Of a DNA stretch of 42,571 bases, positions 1,174-40,899 are shown in pieces. How positions within the stretch are numbered: the first letter of the stretch is position 1; every line of letters begins with the position of its first letter. The position numbers and the translations under genes were made by a program. The stretch comes from Vermamoeba vermiformis (lineage: Eukaryota), in assembly GCA_045837725.1 (NCBI GenBank), contig JBEWZL010000257.1, forward strand, positions 310,001-352,571. Direction: 5' to 3'. The notes under the pieces are model-generated. The model searched no databases, was not told the origin of the DNA, and worked only from the letters and a program-made list of their open reading frames with translations.

Positions 1174-3341
1174 ATGTCTGAAAGGCGGCCTCTGCTTATT
1201 AACATGGCTCATCCACAACATAATCACCACCATCAAAATGTAAGTGCGATCGAGGATCTCGATCCGTTTAAAATTAAAAAGATTTTGTATATTAATTTAG
1301 TGCTAATTATTTATTATAGACACATATTACCGAGCATCATTTTGGTGCGCATGCTTTGGTTAAATATAACATCGACGACAGTTCGCGATCTCGTTTCTAT
1401 GGATTAATCAGTAAGTTAAAACACTATCATCGCAATAATAATATTAAAAATATGGTAATGACGCTAGGCGTATTTTAATAAATTTATTTTTAATTTGCCG
1501 CCATTTATTTTAGAGATCCCTCGGTTGCGACAGTATTACGTTTACGATCCTAATTTGAAGAAAGAAGTGCTCATTAGAGAGAAAGACGTACGCAAGGTTT
1601 CGTGGACAGAACTGTTTTATGATTTGATTTACGTGGTCTTGGTCGATCACTTAGGTAAGACATCCAAAAAACAGCGCGTTGCACGGAATAGTCTAATAAT
1701 TACCTCAATATTATATTAGTCCACTTTTTGAGTGAGCACGCTGACAAATCACACATTTTCGTGCTTCTGTTTGCTTCGATCTACCGTGTTTGGTCCGCAA
1801 CAACGATGTACAGCACTCGCTACGATACCGATGACTTTGTAAGCAATATTATAGCATAGTATACCGACTACTATATTAATATACGATTATCTGATCAATC
1901 AAAATAATTACTAAATTTCTAACACAAACGAAATCCAGATCCACAAAATCTATTATTTGATTCAAATGTCAGCAGTCGTATGTATGGGTATCAATCTCGA
2001 AAACGCAACAGAAGAGCCGTCAATGGGCTTTACAGTCTCTTATCTCGTGGCTAAGGGCACTCTCGTTGTGATGTACGTGTACACCGTGTTCAGTGAAAAG
2101 AAATATCACAATGCATTGGTACGCACACTATAGTACTCTATATACGAATACATCTAACTATCATCGTAGTTCTGGGCGATTTACGTCGCGGTGTTTTTGA
2201 TCCCGTGGTGCTTCGCGTTGATTTTCCCGGAATGGGGCTATGTCTGCTGGCTGATTGGTCTGGCCGGGGAAGAACTGTTCATTCTCGTCGCTGTGTCTTT
2301 GCGGAAATTTGCAGCCCCGCTCAACATTGAACACTACATTGAGCGTATGGGTCTGTTCGTCATGTTGTTGCTCGGCTTGATTGTCGTCGCATTGCTCGGG
2401 GCCTCTGAAAATCACGAAATCTACGGCTACTTGTACGTCATTCGTCATATTTGATTATAGGCCATAATTAACTATGACGCTAGGGCCGCATTGATTCCGC
2501 TCTTCTTGGCCTTCGCGCTGAAGTGGACTTACTTCGACATTGAAGGCGCGCCCAAGAGAATGCACGCTATTCGTCGCAACAGCTACCTCGGTGTGCTGTG
2601 GGGATTTTTGCACATTCCTCTGCTCGTAGGCATTTGCTTCACTGCTGCTGGATTGTTGTCTATTGAGGTAAGTATCACATGTGTTATTCGTTCAGTGAAC
2701 GGAGAGATGGATATTTCGTGCTGAAAATGACACATGTCACGATATTTTTCACGTGTTATTTTGACATTTCATTGACACTTTGTACAGCACACAGTTGAAG
2801 AGCATCACGACGAGTACCCCAAATACTACGCACAATGGATGGTCTCGTCGGGCGTGGGCACTGTGTTGATCTGCATGGGTCTCATGGGATTCTTGTCGCG
2901 CAGTTACTGCAACTTCGTCATTTCAGTCAACATTCGCTTGCCTCTGCGCATAGCTGTGGGCATTGCGTGCATCTTGTTCGGTCTCACTTACGAAATGTAC
3001 GTAGAATCATTTTACGTGTTGCGCGGATCTAACATTCAAACCTAGGGAAAACACGGTGCAATATCTTGCTATTATCGGCTCAGTAGTGTTTGCCTTTGCT
3101 ATTATTGAACTGTAAGTGCCAGTCTGATAGTCATATAAGGACTATGATTGATATTAATGTCCTCTGTAGTATTGGCTCGGTGCAAAAAGAGACGTGCATA
3201 ACGCAACTGCAGTACGTGAATTTGCAGCCCGAAGAGACCAAAATGATCAATTCGACCTTCCAAAACCTTGGCGGCAACATCGCTAATTTTATGGGCAGTG
3301 CTTCGACGGATCCAGCTGGTGACAGGGACGACCAGGTCTAG
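1174..3341 (+). CDS. Low temperature requirement protein A (LtrA)-family multi-pass membrane protein, multi-exon
   Basis: Spliced exons give RKVSWTELFYDLIYV, YSTRYDTDD and HYIERMGLFVMLLLG, characteristic LtrA motifs; many hydrophobic helices; His-rich N-terminus. Confidence 0.85.
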
Positions 3342-7183: not shown

Positions 7184-8662
7184 ATGACGTATTTGGCTTG
7201 GCGTAAGTCATTTTTGATATTTTTGGCATTCCTAGCGACAGTAACTGCGGATGCCTGCCCTACGAACGACGGATCTTGGTCCGAGATAGGTGCGGTTGAA
7301 AATCCTACCGGAACAATTACCTTCGACGACTTGGGCTTTAGTGCCTCTTTAGGCTGGAATTCTGCCGGTGGAAATCCACTTGTAGCGTACCAGGCAGGAG
7401 GCAGGACCGCTTCGATCTCCAGCGCAGGAATGGTCTACAGTGGGTTAAGCGTGACCACAAATAAAAATAAATGGGATGGACAACAAAATTGGTTCGATGG
7501 CGGAGGTATGCCTGGCTATTATTGGGTGATCTTCGACTCCGCTCAAAATTACGGTGAGCTGGTCTTCGACGTTCCCGTGGCAATGGTTAGCGCTAGAAAT
7601 ATGGGGGATGCTAATACATTTGCAACTACTCGTATGGAGGCTTTTGACGAGCAAGACAATTTAATCGGATGCGTTACAAATATTGGTGAAAATAGCGGAA
7701 CGAACGTTTTTATGTATCGTGGCATTAGTACAAGCTCTCCAATTAAGAAAGTTAGATTTTATGCTTCACAATTGCTTGACGACATTTTATTTGGTAGTAA
7801 TGTGCAATTTAAATATTTTATTTTGCTTACAAGTTATTTGTTCAGCGGATGTTGCATGCAACGTCGACTCTTGCTACAATAATTCATGGTGCTTTAATGA
7901 TTCTCCGAATAACGGCTCTGTCTCTTGTGTTTGCAAGAATGGTTACGAATTTGACGGATTTACTTGTGTTGGTAAGTTCAACAAGCACTGCATGAAGAAT
8001 AATAGAATACTGATAATTAATGTCCTTAATATTAGACCTAAACGAATGCAAGTTAAATCCTTGTCCACCCAACGCATTCTGCACCAATCTTGAATACGCG
8101 TACGGCTCATTCAACTGCACGTGCAATGAGGGCTTCACCGGCGATGGTAACACTTGCACTGGTACGTCAGCTATGCTTGTCATACGATATCGTAGTTGTG
8201 CTAAACCTTCTCACTACGGTCAGACATCAACGAGTGCGACAACAATCCGTGCAGTCCACTCGCGAACTGCACCAACACTCCTGGGTCGTTCAACTGCACG
8301 TGCACTGATGGCTACGAAGGTGACGGCCTCACATGCACAGGTAACGTGTCGCTGACTTGACACCAAGCACCACCGTATCGCTGACACAACACTTTGCTCT
8401 CGCAGACAAGAATGAATGTGCCACCAATCCGTGCGATGTGAATGCGAGCTGCACCAACACTGAAGGCTCGTTCACGTGTGCGTGCAATGACGGCTACACT
8501 GGTGATGGCAACACGTGCACTAAGATCGAGGCACCAACTGCTCCAGTGGCAGCTCCTACACGGACACCTATTGGAAGCAAAGTATCCTCAGCGTCGTGTA
8601 TTAACATCGCGATGATGTTTGGAACTATAGCGATACTCATTAATACGGCCCTGTTCATCTGA
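7184..8662 (+). CDS. Secreted/GPI-type surface protein: unknown N-terminal beta-rich domain plus four EGF/EGF-Ca repeats
   Basis: Signal peptide; DxNEC...C.N..GS..C.C..G..GDG..C repeats each on its own exon; Pro/Thr linker and hydrophobic C-terminal tail. Confidence 0.85.
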
Positions 8663-12554: not shown

Positions 12555-14014
12555 ATGGCTAATTTGGTTATGAATATTACGCTAATATTCTCGTTGGCTT
12601 TGCTAGTCTCAACAGTCACCGCTGCATGCAAACCAAACGATGATTCTTGGATTTTGATGGATGCACCCGTTGGTGGCACGCCAACAGGCTCCTTTGATTT
12701 CGATAATTTAGGATTCTCCATTAGAACCCCTTGGTCTTATTTTGACTCTCCTCTCGCCGTTTACAACGACGGCGCCGGCCAAGTTGCGTATATAGGTGGA
12801 GCTACTGGTAACTTGTACAACTACATCTTTCAAGCGTCTGGCGGTAGCACGTGGGACGGAGGAGCAGTATGGGACGGATTTGGCGACAAGCCTGGCTATT
12901 ATTGGCTGACGAATGATCCGGACAATACTTGCTATTTGAGCTTTGTAAATCCCGTTGCAATAGTTACATTGCGAGCCCAAGGCGATGCAAATGCTGCCAG
13001 CATTAACACTATTGAAGCGTATGATGTTAATGACACTTTAATTGCATGCTATAGCGACATCAACGAAAGAGGCGGAACGAATCGTTATTTTGATCTCGGA
13101 TTTCGGACCAGCATTCCTATGAAAAAGCTGGTATTTAAGGGCATTATATCTATGGATAACTTTCAGTTTTGTACGTTAATAGCTCACTTTTTTAGACCCA
13201 TATTATTAATCTGTGCTTCTTTAAAGCCGATCCGTTGTGCCAGCCTGACTCGTGCGACACTAACGCCTGGTGCTTCAACAACCTTGCTAACAGCGGAGTC
13301 ATGTGTTCGTGCAAGACCGGCTATAGTGGCGAAGGATCTGTGGGCACCTGCACTGGTAAGTTTTCAATGGAGATAAAAGTGGTGATAGTTGTTAAAATAT
13401 CAATGCGGTGCAGACAAGAACGAGTGCGACCTCTCGGTTTGTGCTGCCCACGCGACCTGCACGAACTTGCCAGGCACATATAACTGTACGTGCAATGAAG
13501 GCTACGAAGGTGACGGCTTCACCAACTGCACTGGTACGTTACAGACACCACTGAACGAGCATTGTTTGACACTGCACCTCTTAGACATCAACGAGTGCGA
13601 CATAGGGCTGTGCAGTCCGAATGCAGTGTGCGTCAACTACGAGCCCGGCTTCAACTGCACGTGCAATGATGGCTACGAAGGTGACGGCCTCACATGCACA
13701 GGTAACGTGTCGCTGACTTGACACCAAGCACCACCGCATCGCTGACACAACACTTTGCTCTCGCAGACAAGAATGAATGTGCCACCAATCCGTGCGATGT
13801 GAATGCGAGCTGCACCAACACTGAAGGCTCGTTCACGTGTGCGTGCAATGACGGCTACACTGGTGATGGCAACACGTGCACTAAGATCGAGACACCAACT
13901 GCTCCAACAGCGGCTCCTACATCTAGCCCCAAGGGCAAGGTTTCATCAGCTGACCGACCCTCTTCGCTCTGTGAAATAGCGTTGTCGGTGGTCGCAGTTA
14001 TCTTAATGTTATAA
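12555..14014 (+). CDS. Secreted/GPI-type EGF-repeat surface protein, paralogue of 7184-8662
   Basis: Homologous N-domain (PTGSFDFDNLGFS, PGYYW, GDANA, GTN), four EGF exons, hydrophobic tail. Confidence 0.85.
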
Positions 14015-14096
14015 ACAGATGCAGAGTCTTTTAGCTTGCGATGATAGACCACACGAACAAACGCTACCGCTAAAACATTTACTAAACGCTAATTCA

Positions 14097-15555
14097 TCAA
14101 TCTAATGGGTTGACCTTCAAGTGGTAAGAGCGCATCACCGCGAGTGCTTGCCTCGGTCCCATGTGCGGTGGACTGACGATGAGGTAGGCTGGCTCCGAGT
14201 ACGAGGGTCGAAATTTCTGTCGAAAGGATAGGATGGCATTCTGCCACGCGAATCTGTTGATCATCTTGAAGACTCCGCGAATGACTACGTATTAGTCGGT
14301 TAGTATTAGCGTAGTCTATTGTCAATTAAGTGCGCACCATATTCTTCGACCATAGCAAATCCCCGAATGTCTCCGAATTCACTTGACGGCGAAGGTCCGA
14401 ATGAAATGTAAGTGCAGCCTTCTTTGCCTAGTGAAGTGAATGTTTCGTCGATTAACAATTCGGTCGTTCCTTTAGTAATTAGAAATTATTAATTATTAGC
14501 GCACGCGATATTTTAGAATTTAAGGATATTTCCTACCTTTCGGAGCATGCGGGATCTGCAGCAGATGCTCCACTAGGTAGCCGTTCTTTCCTTTTAACGA
14601 TACTAATGAAGTGATTGCGATGACCTTGCCGTGCTGAGAAACGTAAAAGAGACGTGACCGAGGCTTGAACAACTGGATGTCGCAGAGATAAAATTGTATA
14701 CCTCGTCTATTCTGATTCCACGCATCAGCGACCTATACAGAATTACAATGTTAATTGCTTGTAATTTCCCTTTATAGCTATAGCTCTCACTTGGATAATT
14801 TGGTTTTGCAATTCGAGGTCTGGATGCGTATCGAATTTGTGCTCCCCTACTATCAAGCCATCTTTTCGGGCCTTGACAATGTTTCGTTTCAGATCTGCAG
14901 TCAATTTCAGCAATTATTGTGAATTTTTCTCCGTAAATCACAGTCAAATTTTGAAACTCGTGATGGTACCTTTTGCGATCGCTCTATACTCGCTTGGATT
15001 GAATATTAAGTCCTTTCCGTAGTTCAGAATGCCACAATTTCCGCTTTTCAAAGCTAAGTTCGCGAATTCGGGGCTTGCTGTGGCAAAGAGCATGTCCGCT
15101 CCTTTCTTTCTGCAAAACTCTTTGAATCTCTCCAATAATGCACCTTGATGTGAATCACACATCGGATCTCCAAAGGCTACAACGCATCCCAAATTTTCCT
15201 GATCCATTCGTAAGTTTCAGCACCTTATTAAATAATTATGTCAATTATTATTAGAACTTACACGATATGCGATGCATCCTTCGATGCCTTCTACGCGGAA
15301 AAGGCTTGTGAGCGGATCCAGAAGGCAATTGGACACTGTACCGCCAAATTTGTCCGTCCAATCGGTTAGAGTGTTGACCGAAAGCCCTTGTTTATCTTCT
15401 CCTCGTAGTATAGCGGCTCTATTCTCTGAGAACACTATGGACGGAGCGGACTTTCCGTTCGTCTTCTTGCTTTCGAGAATTAAGGCCATTAATAGCATTA
15501 CAAACTTGCGAATCCATTCGTAAAACTTTAAAACGACAATATTCCGTGTTAACAT
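14097..15555 (-). CDS. Stand-alone DUF2156 / phosphatidylglycerol lysyltransferase C-terminal-like (aminoacyl-tRNA transferase) protein; start uncertain (possible extra 5' exons to ~15704)
   Basis: KFGGTVSNCLLDP..FRVEGIEGCIAYR, VVAFGDPMC, HAPK/GTTELLI...ISFG, LSFRQKFRP...PAYL motifs; no MprF flippase TM domain or aaRS domain. Confidence 0.75.
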
Positions 15556-15817
15556 GGTGACTAAATTAAATTGAAAGGAGTATACCCTCAGAGCCGGTCC
15601 ACCTTGATCAAAGGCAAGAAAGCTCGGTGAAAACCTGCAGAAATGAAGTAAAGATTGCGAATCAAAATTATCCTAAGATGTAACATTACCTGCTTTTTAA
15701 TCATGGTTAGTGCACCGAGAATGAATTAATCGAGGCACGATTGCGAAAATTTATTGTAACAATTTCTGACAAATTGTGAAATGATACCTGAACTCCGTAA
15801 CTGGTCAAAGATCTTGA

Positions 15818-17078
15818 TCATGTTGCTAAATCCTCAATGTCTCCAATAGTACCAGTTGCGCAGGAAGGTTGTTGAGCAGCTGTAACACTCTTCACCCAGT
15901 CGTAAATGCCTTGGCGTTGCACGAATCTGTTGCCGTCAAATCCACTTTGAGACAGCGCCACTTGCACGGGCACGTCGAGAATGGACTGCGAGGGGACTTT
16001 GCTGCCGTTCTGACAGTTCAAGAACCTCATGCGCTCGTCTAAAATGAGGTACGAGTCTTTCATCACGTCGTTGGGCTCGGCCACCAATGACGTTTGGGCT
16101 GCGTGACGGGCCAGAAACTCGTTGAATTGCTCGGTCGAGATGAGAAGTCCGTGAGCATCTTTGTTTGTTCTACAAGCCATAGTTAAGACCTAGAACAATG
16201 TATACTCGAGTCTAGCTACAAAACTTACTTATTTTCACCAACATTCTCGCCGTCAATGAGCAGCACTTGAAACACTTTCCATCTGAACGGAGCCAAGGCT
16301 GCAATGTGTGCGTTCATGTCTTCGTGATAGTTGTAGCGACAAATCACCGAGTTCATCTTGAACTTGATGTTGTATTTTCGGCACCACTGCGCGACATTGT
16401 AGACTTGTGCCACGTGCTTACCATTGCCGCGGCCAATTTTGATGTTGGTCTGTTCGTCAAAACTGTCGCACGAGATAGCTAAGATGTCGAGGTACTGGCC
16501 CCACGTTTGGAACCAATCTTCTTTAATCTTGCTGCCGTTTGACACGATGCTGACTGCCAGACCAAGTTCCTAAAATAGAAAATTGACATCTGTCATGATA
16601 GGTATAACCCCAAAACAAATTTATTGTCAGAATCTCGTCCGCGGACGAATGAATTGCTAATCCTACCTTTGAATACTTGCACATTTGTCCTAATAGTTTG
16701 GGAAACAGAAAGGGCTCGCCTCCTAAGAATAATATGGTTAATAGATGCTGCGCATCTGTATTCACATTCAGTTCGATTTACCTGCGAAGTTAATTTTCTT
16801 CATCCCGGCTTCGCGCAACAGTTTGATACCACGCATTGCCTCCTCTGATCAAAATAATAATTAATTAGGATCGAACACGTTGTCTTAGCGTGTCTTTCAA
16901 AGTTACCTATCGGCAGTTTGAAGGTGTTGGTTTTGGTGTGAAAGCAGAACTTGCATTCGTAGTTGCAATCGCGCGAGAAGTGATAATTGACGCTGATTGG
17001 CTTCAATTGATTTCGATATCTGCGCCAGATGAAAATGGCAGCTGACACGAAGCCAAGGGCGAGTAGAATTAGCCACAT
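15818..17078 (-). CDS. RSAD2: Viperin (RSAD2-like radical SAM ddhNTP synthase), multi-exon
   Basis: N-terminal hydrophobic helix; [20 protein letters not shown] (CxxxCxxC), [26 protein letters not shown]...[39 protein letters not shown]. Confidence 0.96.
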
Positions 17079-17291
17079 TTGAAGTAAAAGAATGTAATAT
17101 ATTAACAGGTGTTTGTGTTGTTGATTAAAGTATTAAAATTAAGTGAAAAAATGCGAAAAAGAGTTAAATAGCCTTCGCTTTCTCAACACGCCGTGTCTAG
17201 TTTTGGGCTCACAAAATCACGTGCGGGACAAATAGAAAGGACCTAAAGAGTCATTAATCTCATTATACGTTTGCCGTTAGATGAAAACATC
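17079..17291. promoter_or_regulatory. Putative bidirectional promoter between viperin and CYTH genes
   Basis: Only 213 bp between divergent ATGs; contains a CACGTG palindrome at 17218-17223. Confidence 0.5.
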
Positions 17292-18095
17292 ATGTTGCGA
17301 ATTGTTAGCAGGGCACCAGTCGCGCTAAAAAGTAGATGGAGCGGAAAATTCAGCGTGCAAAAGAGATTGCTTGCTAGCGACTCAAAAGGTGATAAAATTG
17401 AAATAGAAGTCAAATTTCCATTTACTAAGGCCGAAGAAGACAAAATTCAAGCCATCTCAAAGCTCATCTCGATCAAACGCTTTACGGACCACTATTTCGA
17501 CAATAATAGTTATACTCTTACCTCAAAGGATATTTGGCTCAGACAAAGAGACGACAAGTGGGAATGCAAAACTACCAGGCTGGATTTCGAACCAAGCTCA
17601 AAACCTGAGAACGTGGTGAGTTACGATCTATTACTCTGACTATATTAATCTCAATGTACTTAATAGCAAGCTCTCGGTGATAGATACCATGAAATCGAGA
17701 AAGAGGCGGACATAATTCAGTACTTACACGGATGTCATTTTCTACGCACAGGAATTGCAGAAAATTCTGACCTTCTCCAAATATTGCTAGCCAATGGATA
17801 TACGTCATTTTGTAGCATTGAGACTACAAGAAAAAAATATCAGTACCGAGATTTAACTATTGACTTGGATTTGACTAATTTTGGGTACCAAATTGGCGAA
17901 ATCGAAATAGTGGTCAATTCTAAAGAACAAATTCTTACCGCTGAAGAGAAGATCCATCGCTTTGCACGAGAACTAGGACTGAGTATCAATTCTGGCGTGC
18001 CTGGCAAAGTCCTGTCGTATTTGCAACGCTTCAGACCCGAGCATTATCGAGCACTACGCAATAGTGGCTTGTTGGACGCTAAAGGAATTAAATAA
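17292..18095 (+). CDS. CYTH-superfamily triphosphatase, thiamine-triphosphatase (THTPA)-like, 2 exons
   Basis: IEIEVKF (ExExK), FTDHYFD, DIWLRQRD..WECK, DLDLTNFGYQIGEIE, PGKVLSYLQRFRPEHY; Arg/Ser-rich N-terminus resembling a mitochondrial presequence. Confidence 0.9.
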
Positions 18096-18163: not shown

Positions 18164-19778
18164 TTATTTGGCAATGTGAAAAACAATAACGAGCAAAATA
18201 CTCGTAAAACAAGATACAACCAGCTGTACTCCACCAGAGACATGTGACTGTGGAGTTGATTGCCCTTGTGGTGTTTGAACTGGCAGTGCGTCATCAGAGC
18301 ACGAGTGACCGAAGATTTGATTAACGCAATGAGAGTTTGCGCCACAGTCGACTGCTTCGCTTGTGCATCGATCAACTGGAATTAACCAAATGTCTTTGAA
18401 TGGGTTATCATATTGCGGGTCGTTTGCTCCACCGTAGAAGAACACATCACCGTCAACATTGAGTCCATTCGCACCTCCTTGATAATACCTACCAGGCATC
18501 GCTGAGCCAGGAGTACGGTAGTTGCTGAAATTGCCTGGAAGATTTTGTTTCGATGGGTCTCCGTAGAGCAGTTTCCATTGCTTCAAAGTCTTGTGGAACA
18601 GCCAAACATCATTTTGTGCGGACCACGCATCTTCATTTTGAGATCCGTTGACGACATAGCCACCACCAGCAGCGACAAGTATCGTGCCGTCTTTGCGATC
18701 AACAACCGTCATGCCTTCTTTGGCAGGAGGAATATTGCCAGGATGAAAGTCATCTGAAACAACCGTTGGTCCGTTCCAGAAGTTAGCGTTAGAGCCGTAC
18801 TCGAGCTGCCATTGATGCGTACGAGTGTCATAGGACCACATGTCACTGAAGTCGTTCCTTTCTCCGTTTTCCAAGTAACCACCTCCACCAAAAAGCCAAA
18901 CGCGGTCGTTCTCGTCAATATCGCAGCCAAGAAGAGATCGACCGCCATAAATGGGGTTACTGCCAAACTTCGTAAAAAGATGACCGAAGTGGAGGACGGT
19001 AGTGTTTCCGCTGACGAAAGTCCATTGCAGTGAGGTGGTATTGAAGTGCCAAGCGGTGTCTGTATAGCCAAAATAACTATCGCCCGAAATAAGCCACAAG
19101 TTATTCTTGGAATCGGTGACTAAACACGCGCCAGTTCTTTGTCCCGGATTGACGTCATCACCTGGTTGACCTGGATTGCTACCAACGATTTGTTCATTAT
19201 ATCCTTTCTGCCCTGTTATCCAAGTGAACATATAAGACGTTGTGTTGAACATCCACAGCTCGCAGCATTCATTCTGTGAGATGAACCAGATGTTGTCGTT
19301 GCGATCTATCGTGCCTTGGAAGAAGTTGACTCCACCAGGGTAGTTGTCTTCTGATGGCACTCTGAGTTCACCAGGATTACGGAGATAAGTGCTCGAGTTG
19401 CCTGGACCAGCCACCCATCGATACAGATCTGTTTTTGGATCGTAGTTCCAAACTGTCATCAGCCAATCTCGCGGATTGTAATTGCGAGTACCGAACAGGA
19501 TCCAAAGTGTCTTCTTCGAGTCCATTACAACTATGGGCATTTCTCCTCGGCCGCCAGCACCAACGGAAATATTGGTCCAAACTCCTCGTTCAGGGAACTG
19601 TTCCATGTAATCCTCGGGCGAATCTAAGATAATAATGAATTAATTAGTGCGAAGTGAAGGTATATTTCTTCTTACCATATTTGATATTTGATGGAGAAAC
19701 CCAGATCGGATCTACGGCAGCAGTAAACGTTGACGCGACCAACAGTGAGGCCAGCAAAGCTTTCAATAATAACATCAT
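18164..19778 (-). CDS. Secreted Kelch/galactose-oxidase-type beta-propeller + EGF + GPI-type tail, 2 exons
   Basis: Signal-peptide exon (ATG 19778); repeated LW.FGG...D.W.Y/F...QW blades; C-terminal 5-Cys EGF-like module and hydrophobic tail. Confidence 0.85.
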
Positions 19779-40009: not shown

Positions 40010-40899
40010 TTATTCTTCCTTGGGAAAGCAGAATCTATCAGAGCAAAAGACAATAGATTGTCTATCTTCAGAGGCTGGTAAGTTCTCGTGTAACATCTTC
40101 TGAGACTGGAAGAAGATTACATCTCCAGCTTCAAATTGTACACGGTAACCAAGGTCTCTGAAGACAAGATCACCTCCCGTAAAGTTGCCAAAGGGAACGA
40201 CGCAACACAGACCATCGGGTCTATCCATGTGGTCGTAGTGGGGGCCTGTAGTTCCCCAGTTAACGACACACATCAGAAAGGATTTTCCAACCAGTCTTGG
40301 GCCAGGAGTTTCTACCTTTATATTTTTGTATATACATTATTAAAATATGTATATTCATTTTCACTTCGCTTACCTCCCGATATTCCTTGCACAGGTTCTT
40401 ATCCACTTGTGAAAATAGGGTGTCAATCATGCCAAAGAACTGTTGGTTGAGCTTGTTGCGAAGGAAGATCCCATTATGCAACCAGCAGCTGATGTTGGCG
40501 TCCGCAGATCTGAACATAAACCGGCGAAACCTTCTCCAATAACCGAGGTGATAGCTTTTTGATTTTTTAATTTGAGGTTTGAATGCTGCCTTGAGAGCTC
40601 TGGACGACTTGACCAAGTTGTTTAAATATTTTTTCGGGATCTTATTTTTGTAAAATCGTAGGATGACTTTTCCATTGCTATCCCGCAATATCCAGCTAGG
40701 TATTTGATTGTTAAAAGAGAAAATATTTTTGATTTTTTTTAAATGCTTACTCAGTGGTGATTAGCTTCAGTTTTTGCACAAGCGGATCGTCGTCAGTCAG
40801 GCATTTAATAGTCTCTGGAATTTTTCTCCTAGCAGGAAGCTTTCGTCTAAGAATCCTTCTTGCCCTAATTCTTCTTCCAAATAACCTTTTAAACGACAT
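40010..40899 (-). CDS. TET/JBP-family 2OG-Fe(II) dioxygenase, 258 aa, 3 exons (40751-40899, 40374-40695, 40010-40315)
   Basis: In-phase splicing gives an intact ORF with basic NLS-like N-terminus, YHLGYW, PHYDHMD (HxD), CCVVPFGNFTGGDLVF, GDVIFFQS..LHEN (distal H), RQSIVF (2OG-binding R). Confidence 0.85.

Follow-up and report, generated by a model that had tools for sequence, protein, structure and literature searches.

A viperin gene head-to-head with a THTPA-family hydrolase gene in Vermamoeba vermiformis, and a possible role in clearing ddhCTP from mitochondria

The window analyzed here is a stretch of 42,571 nucleotides from Vermamoeba vermiformis (NCBI GenBank assembly GCA_045837725.1, contig JBEWZL010000257.1, positions 310,001 to 352,571 of the forward strand). 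It carries a gene for viperin (RSAD2) on the minus strand and, on the plus strand, a gene for a CYTH hydrolase of the thiamine triphosphatase (THTPA) family. The two genes diverge head-to-head, with 213 bp from ATG to ATG (Table 1). An earlier sequence-only reading described this arrangement, and gene models and spliced contigs agree with it. It also took the partner for a THTPA-type hydrolase, not a nucleotide kinase, and sequence and fold matches agree. None of the 93 window open reading frames (ORFs) scanned, from 125 open frames of at least 78 aa, matches a nucleoside monophosphate (NMP) kinase. The thymidylate- and adenylate-kinase matches of the genome all lie off this contig, none within three genes of viperin. 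Two adjoining thymidylate-kinase-like genes on opposite strands were noted on genome contig C124 (~406,800-408,600), and these score poorly against viperin-fused kinases.

Contigs from the public runs X1 and X10 lack all five introns, four in the viperin gene and one in the CYTH gene (17616-17666). Run X1 was taken as RNA by guess; its contigs nevertheless skip the introns. Transcript-contig 5′ ends lie at 17275 on the CYTH side and at 17116 on the viperin side, leaving at most ~158 bp between them. The raw reads come from a 90-95% relative of the source organism, and hence read depth is not a basis for ranking expression. Both reading frames are intact, and that of viperin has no internal stop. 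By eye, a short peptide in the read-through N-terminus of the CYTH relative P0003 matches the translated upstream stretch at 17218-17236, which may reflect a conserved promoter element.

Table 1. Features of the viperin-CYTH gene pair (positions are those of the window).
Feature	Position	Strand	Details and basis
Viperin (RSAD2/SAND) gene	15818..17078	-	5 exons, 327 aa; gene model, NCBIfam matches, spliced contigs
Viperin exons	17078-16907, 16844-16782, 16722-16667, 16569-16229, 16169-15818	-	gene model
Hydrophobic N-terminal segment, residues 1-18	17025..17078	-	mean Kyte-Doolittle 2.4
CxxxCxxC radical-SAM cluster motif, residues 38-45	16944..16967	-	sequence motif
Beta-8 loop Cys and Lys at mouse Cys314/Lys319 positions	15998..16015	-	alignment to 5vsl
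Intergenic stretch, candidate shared promoter	17079..17291	.	213 bp; gene model and spliced contigs
THTPA-family CYTH/TTM gene	17292..18095	+	2 exons, 17292-17615 and 17667-18095; 250 aa; gene model, profile, fold
Presequence-like N-terminus, residues 1-27	17292..17372	+	net +7, no D/E, R-3-type motif; simple heuristic
ExExK CYTH signature (E37, E39, K41)	17400..17414	+	alignment; definition PMC8233210 (passages)
WxRxR ThTPase motif (W82 = THTPA W53; R84, R86)	17535..17549	+	alignment; definition PMC8233210 (passages)

The viperin exons, scanned one by one against profiles, match the viperin profiles TIGR04278/NF038283 with E values of 2.6e-49, 5.8e-31 and 1.3e-12. The first of these, for TIGR04278 on exon 4, compares with 3e-05 for MoaA. 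In addition to its radical-SAM motif, the protein carries GGEP at residue 79. A tree of loci in which a single frame spans >170 profile positions places it within the main eukaryotic viperin clade (SH-aLRT 96), but with no near relative, the highest identity being 57%. Its hydrophobic first 18 residues likely form a membrane or endoplasmic reticulum (ER) anchor, the ER role being suggested by passages of the preprint of Shomar et al. (bioRxiv 10.1101/2023.09.13.557418). The same preprint ties a pair of the Cys314/Lys319 type to CTP selectivity. We infer that viperin here makes the chain terminator ddhCTP (3′-deoxy-3′,4′-didehydro-CTP) from CTP.

Both exons of the partner gene exceed the Pfam CYTH cut-off. 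The best solved relatives by sequence are human and mouse THTPA (E 2.9e-21, ~30% identity). The predicted model (pLDDT 86) has an eight-strand tunnel fold whose top match is mouse THTPA (5a64, E 3.9e-19). Along with ExExK and WxRxR, equivalents of the Y39/K65 dyad (Y68, K93) and the ExE motif (E203/E205) are intact. ExExK, the dyad and WxRxR together constitute a thiamine triphosphate (ThTP) hydrolase signature, and enzymes of this type cut organic triphosphates at the beta-gamma bond (PMC8233210). However, WxRxR occurs in 152 of 159 family rows, bacterial-size ones included, and is therefore no proof of a ThTP substrate. Class IV adenylyl cyclase (CyaB) was considered and rejected: the HFxxxxExExK motif is missing, the ExE lacks the Ala swap, and the CyaB profile TIGR00318, with exon 2 alone, scores 19.9 bits against a cut-off of 57.95.

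The THTPA-type family is broad, with 1120 representatives at E<=0.001. Many members are ~197 aa long (bacterial by Atlas taxa) and have no N-terminal extension (median 2 residues, 91/97). A 159-row tree was built from matches of at least 165 aa; a 63-row tree did without most of its bacterial-size rows and without P0207 and P0200, which are partial domains. The one named near relative is the Nematostelium gracile protein, whose placement beside the window protein is weak. When metagenomes were scanned with the three nearest CYTHs (P0002, P0003, P0008), 590 pattern matches came up, none of which was confirmed. The window protein is a member of the THTPA subfamily and looks like an ordinary THTPA orthologue.

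The N-terminal 27 residues form a low-confidence region of the predicted model and resemble a mitochondrial presequence. Their charge, lack of acidic residues and R-3-type motif uphold this part of the sequence-only reading, and the CYTH protein probably goes to mitochondria. Such a start is no sign of special recruitment, since the feature is family-wide in non-animal eukaryotes. Of 31 non-animal eukaryote-like homologues examined, 29 could be scored, and 23 of these have a presequence-like start, counted as a net charge of at least +2 over residues 1-25. In the clade with the Haliotis protein only 2 of 11 members do. The group labels are inferred from trees and lengths. Fungal viperin-linked CYTHs also have basic, acid-free N-termini. 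This distribution, common in non-animal eukaryote-like homologues and rare in animal-clade ones, hints at a mitochondrial location of the family that predates animals.

The sequence-only reading went on to propose that the hydrolase protects mitochondrial transcription against viperin's product. The proposed victim does exist, as a phage-type RNA polymerase gene is found in this genome, and ddhCTP terminates transcription by the human mitochondrial enzyme POLRMT (PMC11982959). Searches of the genome, which give lower bounds, found a single viperin locus (own exon and TIGR04278) and a single CYTH match (own exon and PF01928). If 12,000-20,000 genes are assumed, two single-match genes would end up side by side by chance with a probability of ~1e-4.

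The association is also not confined to this locus. Among 56 viperins of at least 421 aa, eight match a hidden Markov model (HMM) of the THTPA family at E<=1.3e-12, the next best match being at E 0.38. These CYTH-viperin fusions occur in both domain orders. Two of them are fungal gene models that are possibly merged neighbors, and Pfam overlooks the CYTH part in five of the eight. Another 11 of the long viperins carry a fused thymidylate-kinase domain, and JmjC/cupin domains are fused to viperin in P0185, P0193 and P0198. The fusions came solely from searches on the viperin side. A CYTH-profile search of proteins of at least 546 aa scored 8000 and yielded a single match, a protein from Haliotis for which no radical-SAM domain is recorded. 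A viral scan with the CYTH-viperin fusion P0205 gave nine matches, none confirmed, and clusters of CYTH/THTPA or of generic radical-SAM proteins were all that Atlas searches gave.

Separate but neighboring genes are found as well. A THTPA-like CYTH gene adjoins viperin tail-to-tail in 2 of 42 metagenome loci (2 of the 15 with at least 2 kb on both sides), both of fungal type, and one of these also has a kinase head-to-head with viperin. The two CYTHs are 83% identical and were counted as one event, with a chance of ~0.004-0.013. These counts cover at most 6 kb from viperin, and a CYTH gene could lie farther out. With our own HMMs, which would miss other CYTH subfamilies, and flanks of up to 4 kb, no THTPA-family, pyrophosphatase or Ppx gene was found at 80 prokaryotic viperin loci (the best 80 of 524) or at 26 viral ones; kinase matches are present in 7 ORFs of these loci. 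The lack of a THTPA-type partner in prokaryotes and viruses is expected if the need for it is mitochondrial. The 26 viral loci are viperin-like genes on viral contigs, three of which are named as giant-virus metagenome-assembled genome contigs.

In free trees the viperin-linked CYTHs fall in three groups. A single clade of linked CYTHs has an approximately unbiased (AU) test p of 0.0007 with the nine linked rows alone, a value that arises because the two nearest rows of unread gene context were left out, and of 0.23 once these two closest sisters are added. Overall, a chance pairing of viperin and CYTH is unlikely, and the partnership is probably real.

We tentatively favor a model in which the THTPA-family enzyme strips the gamma-phosphate of ddhCTP in mitochondria and so guards the cell's own mitochondrial transcription. 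This is possible rather than probable. Membrane-anchored viperin, judged by its motifs, would turn CTP into ddhCTP in the cytosol. The terminator would then reach mitochondria and stop the phage-type RNA polymerase, as is in print for human cells. There, discrimination in vitro is only ~10-fold, whereas misincorporation in cells falls below prediction, possibly owing to a lower mitochondrial ratio of ddhCTP to CTP (PMC11982959). The imported enzyme would cut ddhCTP to ddhCDP and phosphate, a reaction of the THTPA type. Human nucleoside diphosphate kinase (NDK) uses ddhCDP >1000-fold less well than CDP, for which the planar ddh sugar has been invoked (PMC10436258). Because ddhCDP would thus be barely rephosphorylated, one cut would come close to one-way inactivation of the terminator.

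ThTP and ddhCTP are alike in combining an aminopyrimidine and a triphosphate with a five-membered ring that is flat, and this likeness could let the enzyme discriminate between ddhCTP and CTP. A stacking residue of the W53 type might take in ddhCTP but shut out puckered CTP. As the sole copy, the enzyme may retain ThTPase activity.

Several observations weigh against this model, and most of them suit one in which the CYTH protein is a housekeeping mitochondrial ThTPase that neighbors viperin by chance in a compact genome, or has a promoter in common with it for metabolic reasons that have nothing to do with ddh-nucleotides. Its catalytic and ThTPase motifs are intact, and its fold is nearest to mouse THTPA. 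The tree nests it among ordinary, unlabeled protist THTPA-like proteins of unread gene context (support 84/94). A sole CYTH copy with such relatives would be expected to have a housekeeping role, and the sequence-only reading had itself listed a single-copy housekeeping THTPA orthologue as counting against its proposal. The presequence is no mark of viperin partners, because it is common across non-animal eukaryote homologues. The spacing of 213 bp is in itself ordinary for this compact, intron-rich genome of 43 Mb in 309 contigs; the outer gaps are ~110 bp on the viperin side and 68 bp on the CYTH side, so that intergenic gaps of 68-213 bp occur on all sides. ThTP is made in mitochondria, and the specificity of mammalian THTPA for ThTP is described as nearly absolute (PMC8615392). 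A CMPK1-like kinase is found at 12 of the 42 metagenome viperin loci, within the available flank, against 2 for CYTH. In addition, a 2026 preprint argues in its abstract that substrate choice depends on a disordered region at the C-terminus and not on the pocket, which leaves ddhCTP as the product uncertain.

We nevertheless regard the housekeeping explanation as rather doubtful, though a serious contender. It does not account for the recurrence of the same family with viperin in eight fusions and as a fungal neighbor, the adjacency here is improbable by chance, and the family-wide WxRxR does not identify the substrate. Furthermore, a review states that a specific ThTPase is not known outside animals (PMC8615392).

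The fusions also bear on the protective model itself. A fused hydrolase shares the compartment of viperin and would cut the product at its source, so that plain self-immunity exercised in another compartment fits the fusions less well than it fits this locus, where viperin and the hydrolase are encoded apart and their targeting signals seem to differ. The role of the hydrolase need not be the same in every lineage. Detoxification is still the best single reading, held as tentatively as above, and the support it was given from the presequence and from a special partner is weaker than first stated.

Fusions of viperin to other hydrolases raise a different explanation. One viperin clade (SH-aLRT 99, quick tree) holds six CYTH fusions and five fusions to a family I pyrophosphatase fold N-terminal to viperin (P0197, P0199, P0201, P0202, P0203), the latter nested among the former as if hydrolases had been swapped. 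This type is absent from the fusions named in the pertinent section of the Shomar preprint. The five proteins begin with a basic presequence-like stretch (net +3 to +6). Three further fusions (P0213, P0214, P0215; two identified with Pfam and one through close homology) join a Ppx/GppA-type domain to prokaryote-like viperin, in a third viperin group, and P0213 is from Picozoa. Thus, the CYTH protein might clear tripolyphosphate (PPPi) or pyrophosphate (PPi) and be a helper that boosts viperin rather than opposing it. The source could be ddhNTP breakdown, side reactions of viperin, or PPi able to excise an incorporated terminator. A helper would make fusion easier to account for than an antagonist would. 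PPPi hydrolysis is the proposed ancestral activity of the TTM superfamily (PMC8615392), and a published proposal has ddhCTP and ddhCDP shedding phosphate through substitution at C5′ (PMC10913068).

We consider a helper of this kind unlikely, however. In the window enzyme the aromatic residue of WxRxR, a mark of an organic substrate, is retained (PMC8233210). The fused pyrophosphatase folds retain the acidic metal ligands but have replaced the equivalents of yeast K56 and Y192, as aligned for P0199 and judged by eye in the other four. These two residues have a functional role in the yeast enzyme, and their loss may indicate a substrate other than plain PPi. Pyrophosphatases are already present in every cell, and a mitochondrial CYTH would share no by-products with a membrane-anchored viperin outside the organelle. 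No paper tying viperin to tripolyphosphate was found in the literature covered.

The occurrence of both fusion orders could also suggest channeling, in which case the hydrolase might mature the product of viperin. On this purely inferential account, ddhCDP would be the wanted compound, either as an inhibitor of viral ribonucleotide reductase or as the first step toward an exported ddh-nucleoside. A reductase target would be relevant to the giant DNA viruses of protists, and ddhCDP, as a poor NDK substrate, would persist (PMC10436258). The nucleoside ddhC occurs outside human cells, and an enzyme that dephosphorylates it to this form is only 'envisaged' (PMC10913068). A mitochondrial site is at odds with a cytosolic viral target, and we find this account very improbable.

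If the protective model proves correct, it would touch on two questions that the recurring genetic link joins. One is how the self-damage caused by viperin's terminator is limited, given that ddhCTP hits mitochondrial transcription (PMC11982959). The other is the purpose of THTPA, whose physiological role has been called obscure (PMC8615392). A broader version, which we think quite unlikely, is that the THTPA family across eukaryotes is an ancient, mostly mitochondrial sanitizer of ddh-nucleotides that reads the flat ring of ddhCTP like the thiazolium of ThTP. This would give THTPA a purpose, and human THTPA would be predicted to hydrolyze ddhCTP too. It would also provide the viperin pathway with a catabolic step that is still missing, as ddhCTP dephosphorylation is credited solely to nucleotidases that go unnamed (PMC10913068).

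Other genes in the window were noted in passing. A spliced gene just downstream of viperin (14068-15704, minus strand) has a weak match to the bacterial-type LPG_synthase_C/MprF C-terminal domain (E 2.2e-06). A gene for a Kelch-type beta-propeller whose C-terminus is hydrophobic (18164-19606, minus strand) faces the CYTH gene tail-to-tail across 68 bp. A gene with one or more introns at 1468-2721 (plus strand) matches the bacterial LtrA domain. Two apparent paralogues (7184-8659 and 12555-14011, plus strand) are secreted, with an N-terminal part lacking a Pfam match followed by EGF repeats. At 40013-40336 (minus strand) there is a weak match, under the cut-off, to Tet_JBP/2OG-Fe(II) oxygenases.

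The mammalian THTPA enzymes (5a64, 3tvl, 3bhd) share with the window protein the TTM fold, ~30% identity, ExExK, Y39/K65, W53xRxR and the C-terminal plug helices. They differ in that the protein here has a presequence-like extension and a link to viperin, whereas the mammalian form is described as mainly cytosolic (PMC8615392). Arabidopsis TTM1 and TTM2 join a uridine-kinase-like domain to a TTM domain, act as pyrophosphatases and, for TTM2, take part in the pathogen response (PMC8233210, PMC8615392). They resemble the window protein in having a CYTH domain with W/YxRxR and a tie to immunity. However, they belong to another cluster and lack ExExK, and the passages of these papers report no link to viperin.

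In the literature covered, with most subscription papers outside its scope, no paper on viperin with CYTH, thiamine triphosphatase or a linked hydrolase was found. The Shomar preprint does mention four viperin-'triphosphatase or cyclase' fusions, and its supplements may list the fused domains; its passages name neither the THTPA subfamily nor a function. The linkage is therefore hinted at in print, without explanation in the papers found. Those fusions likewise tie viperin to a CYTH-type domain in eukaryotes, whereas here there are two genes with apparently different targeting signals. The closest parallels are the modules of viperin and an NMP kinase (RSAD2-CMPK2, fungal CMPK1-type and pVip-kinase pairs), which share the adjoining nucleotide-handling gene, the head-to-head layout, the CTP-type pocket and the hydrophobic N-tail (Shomar et al., bioRxiv 10.1101/2023.09.13.557418). 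Here the partner is instead a gamma-phosphate hydrolase, and no NMP kinase match is present on the contig. The locus is a variant of the modules that link viperin to a nucleotide enzyme, and with it the THTPA-family association, otherwise seen in fungi and as fusion proteins, reaches a separate lineage of protists, this time with no kinase alongside.
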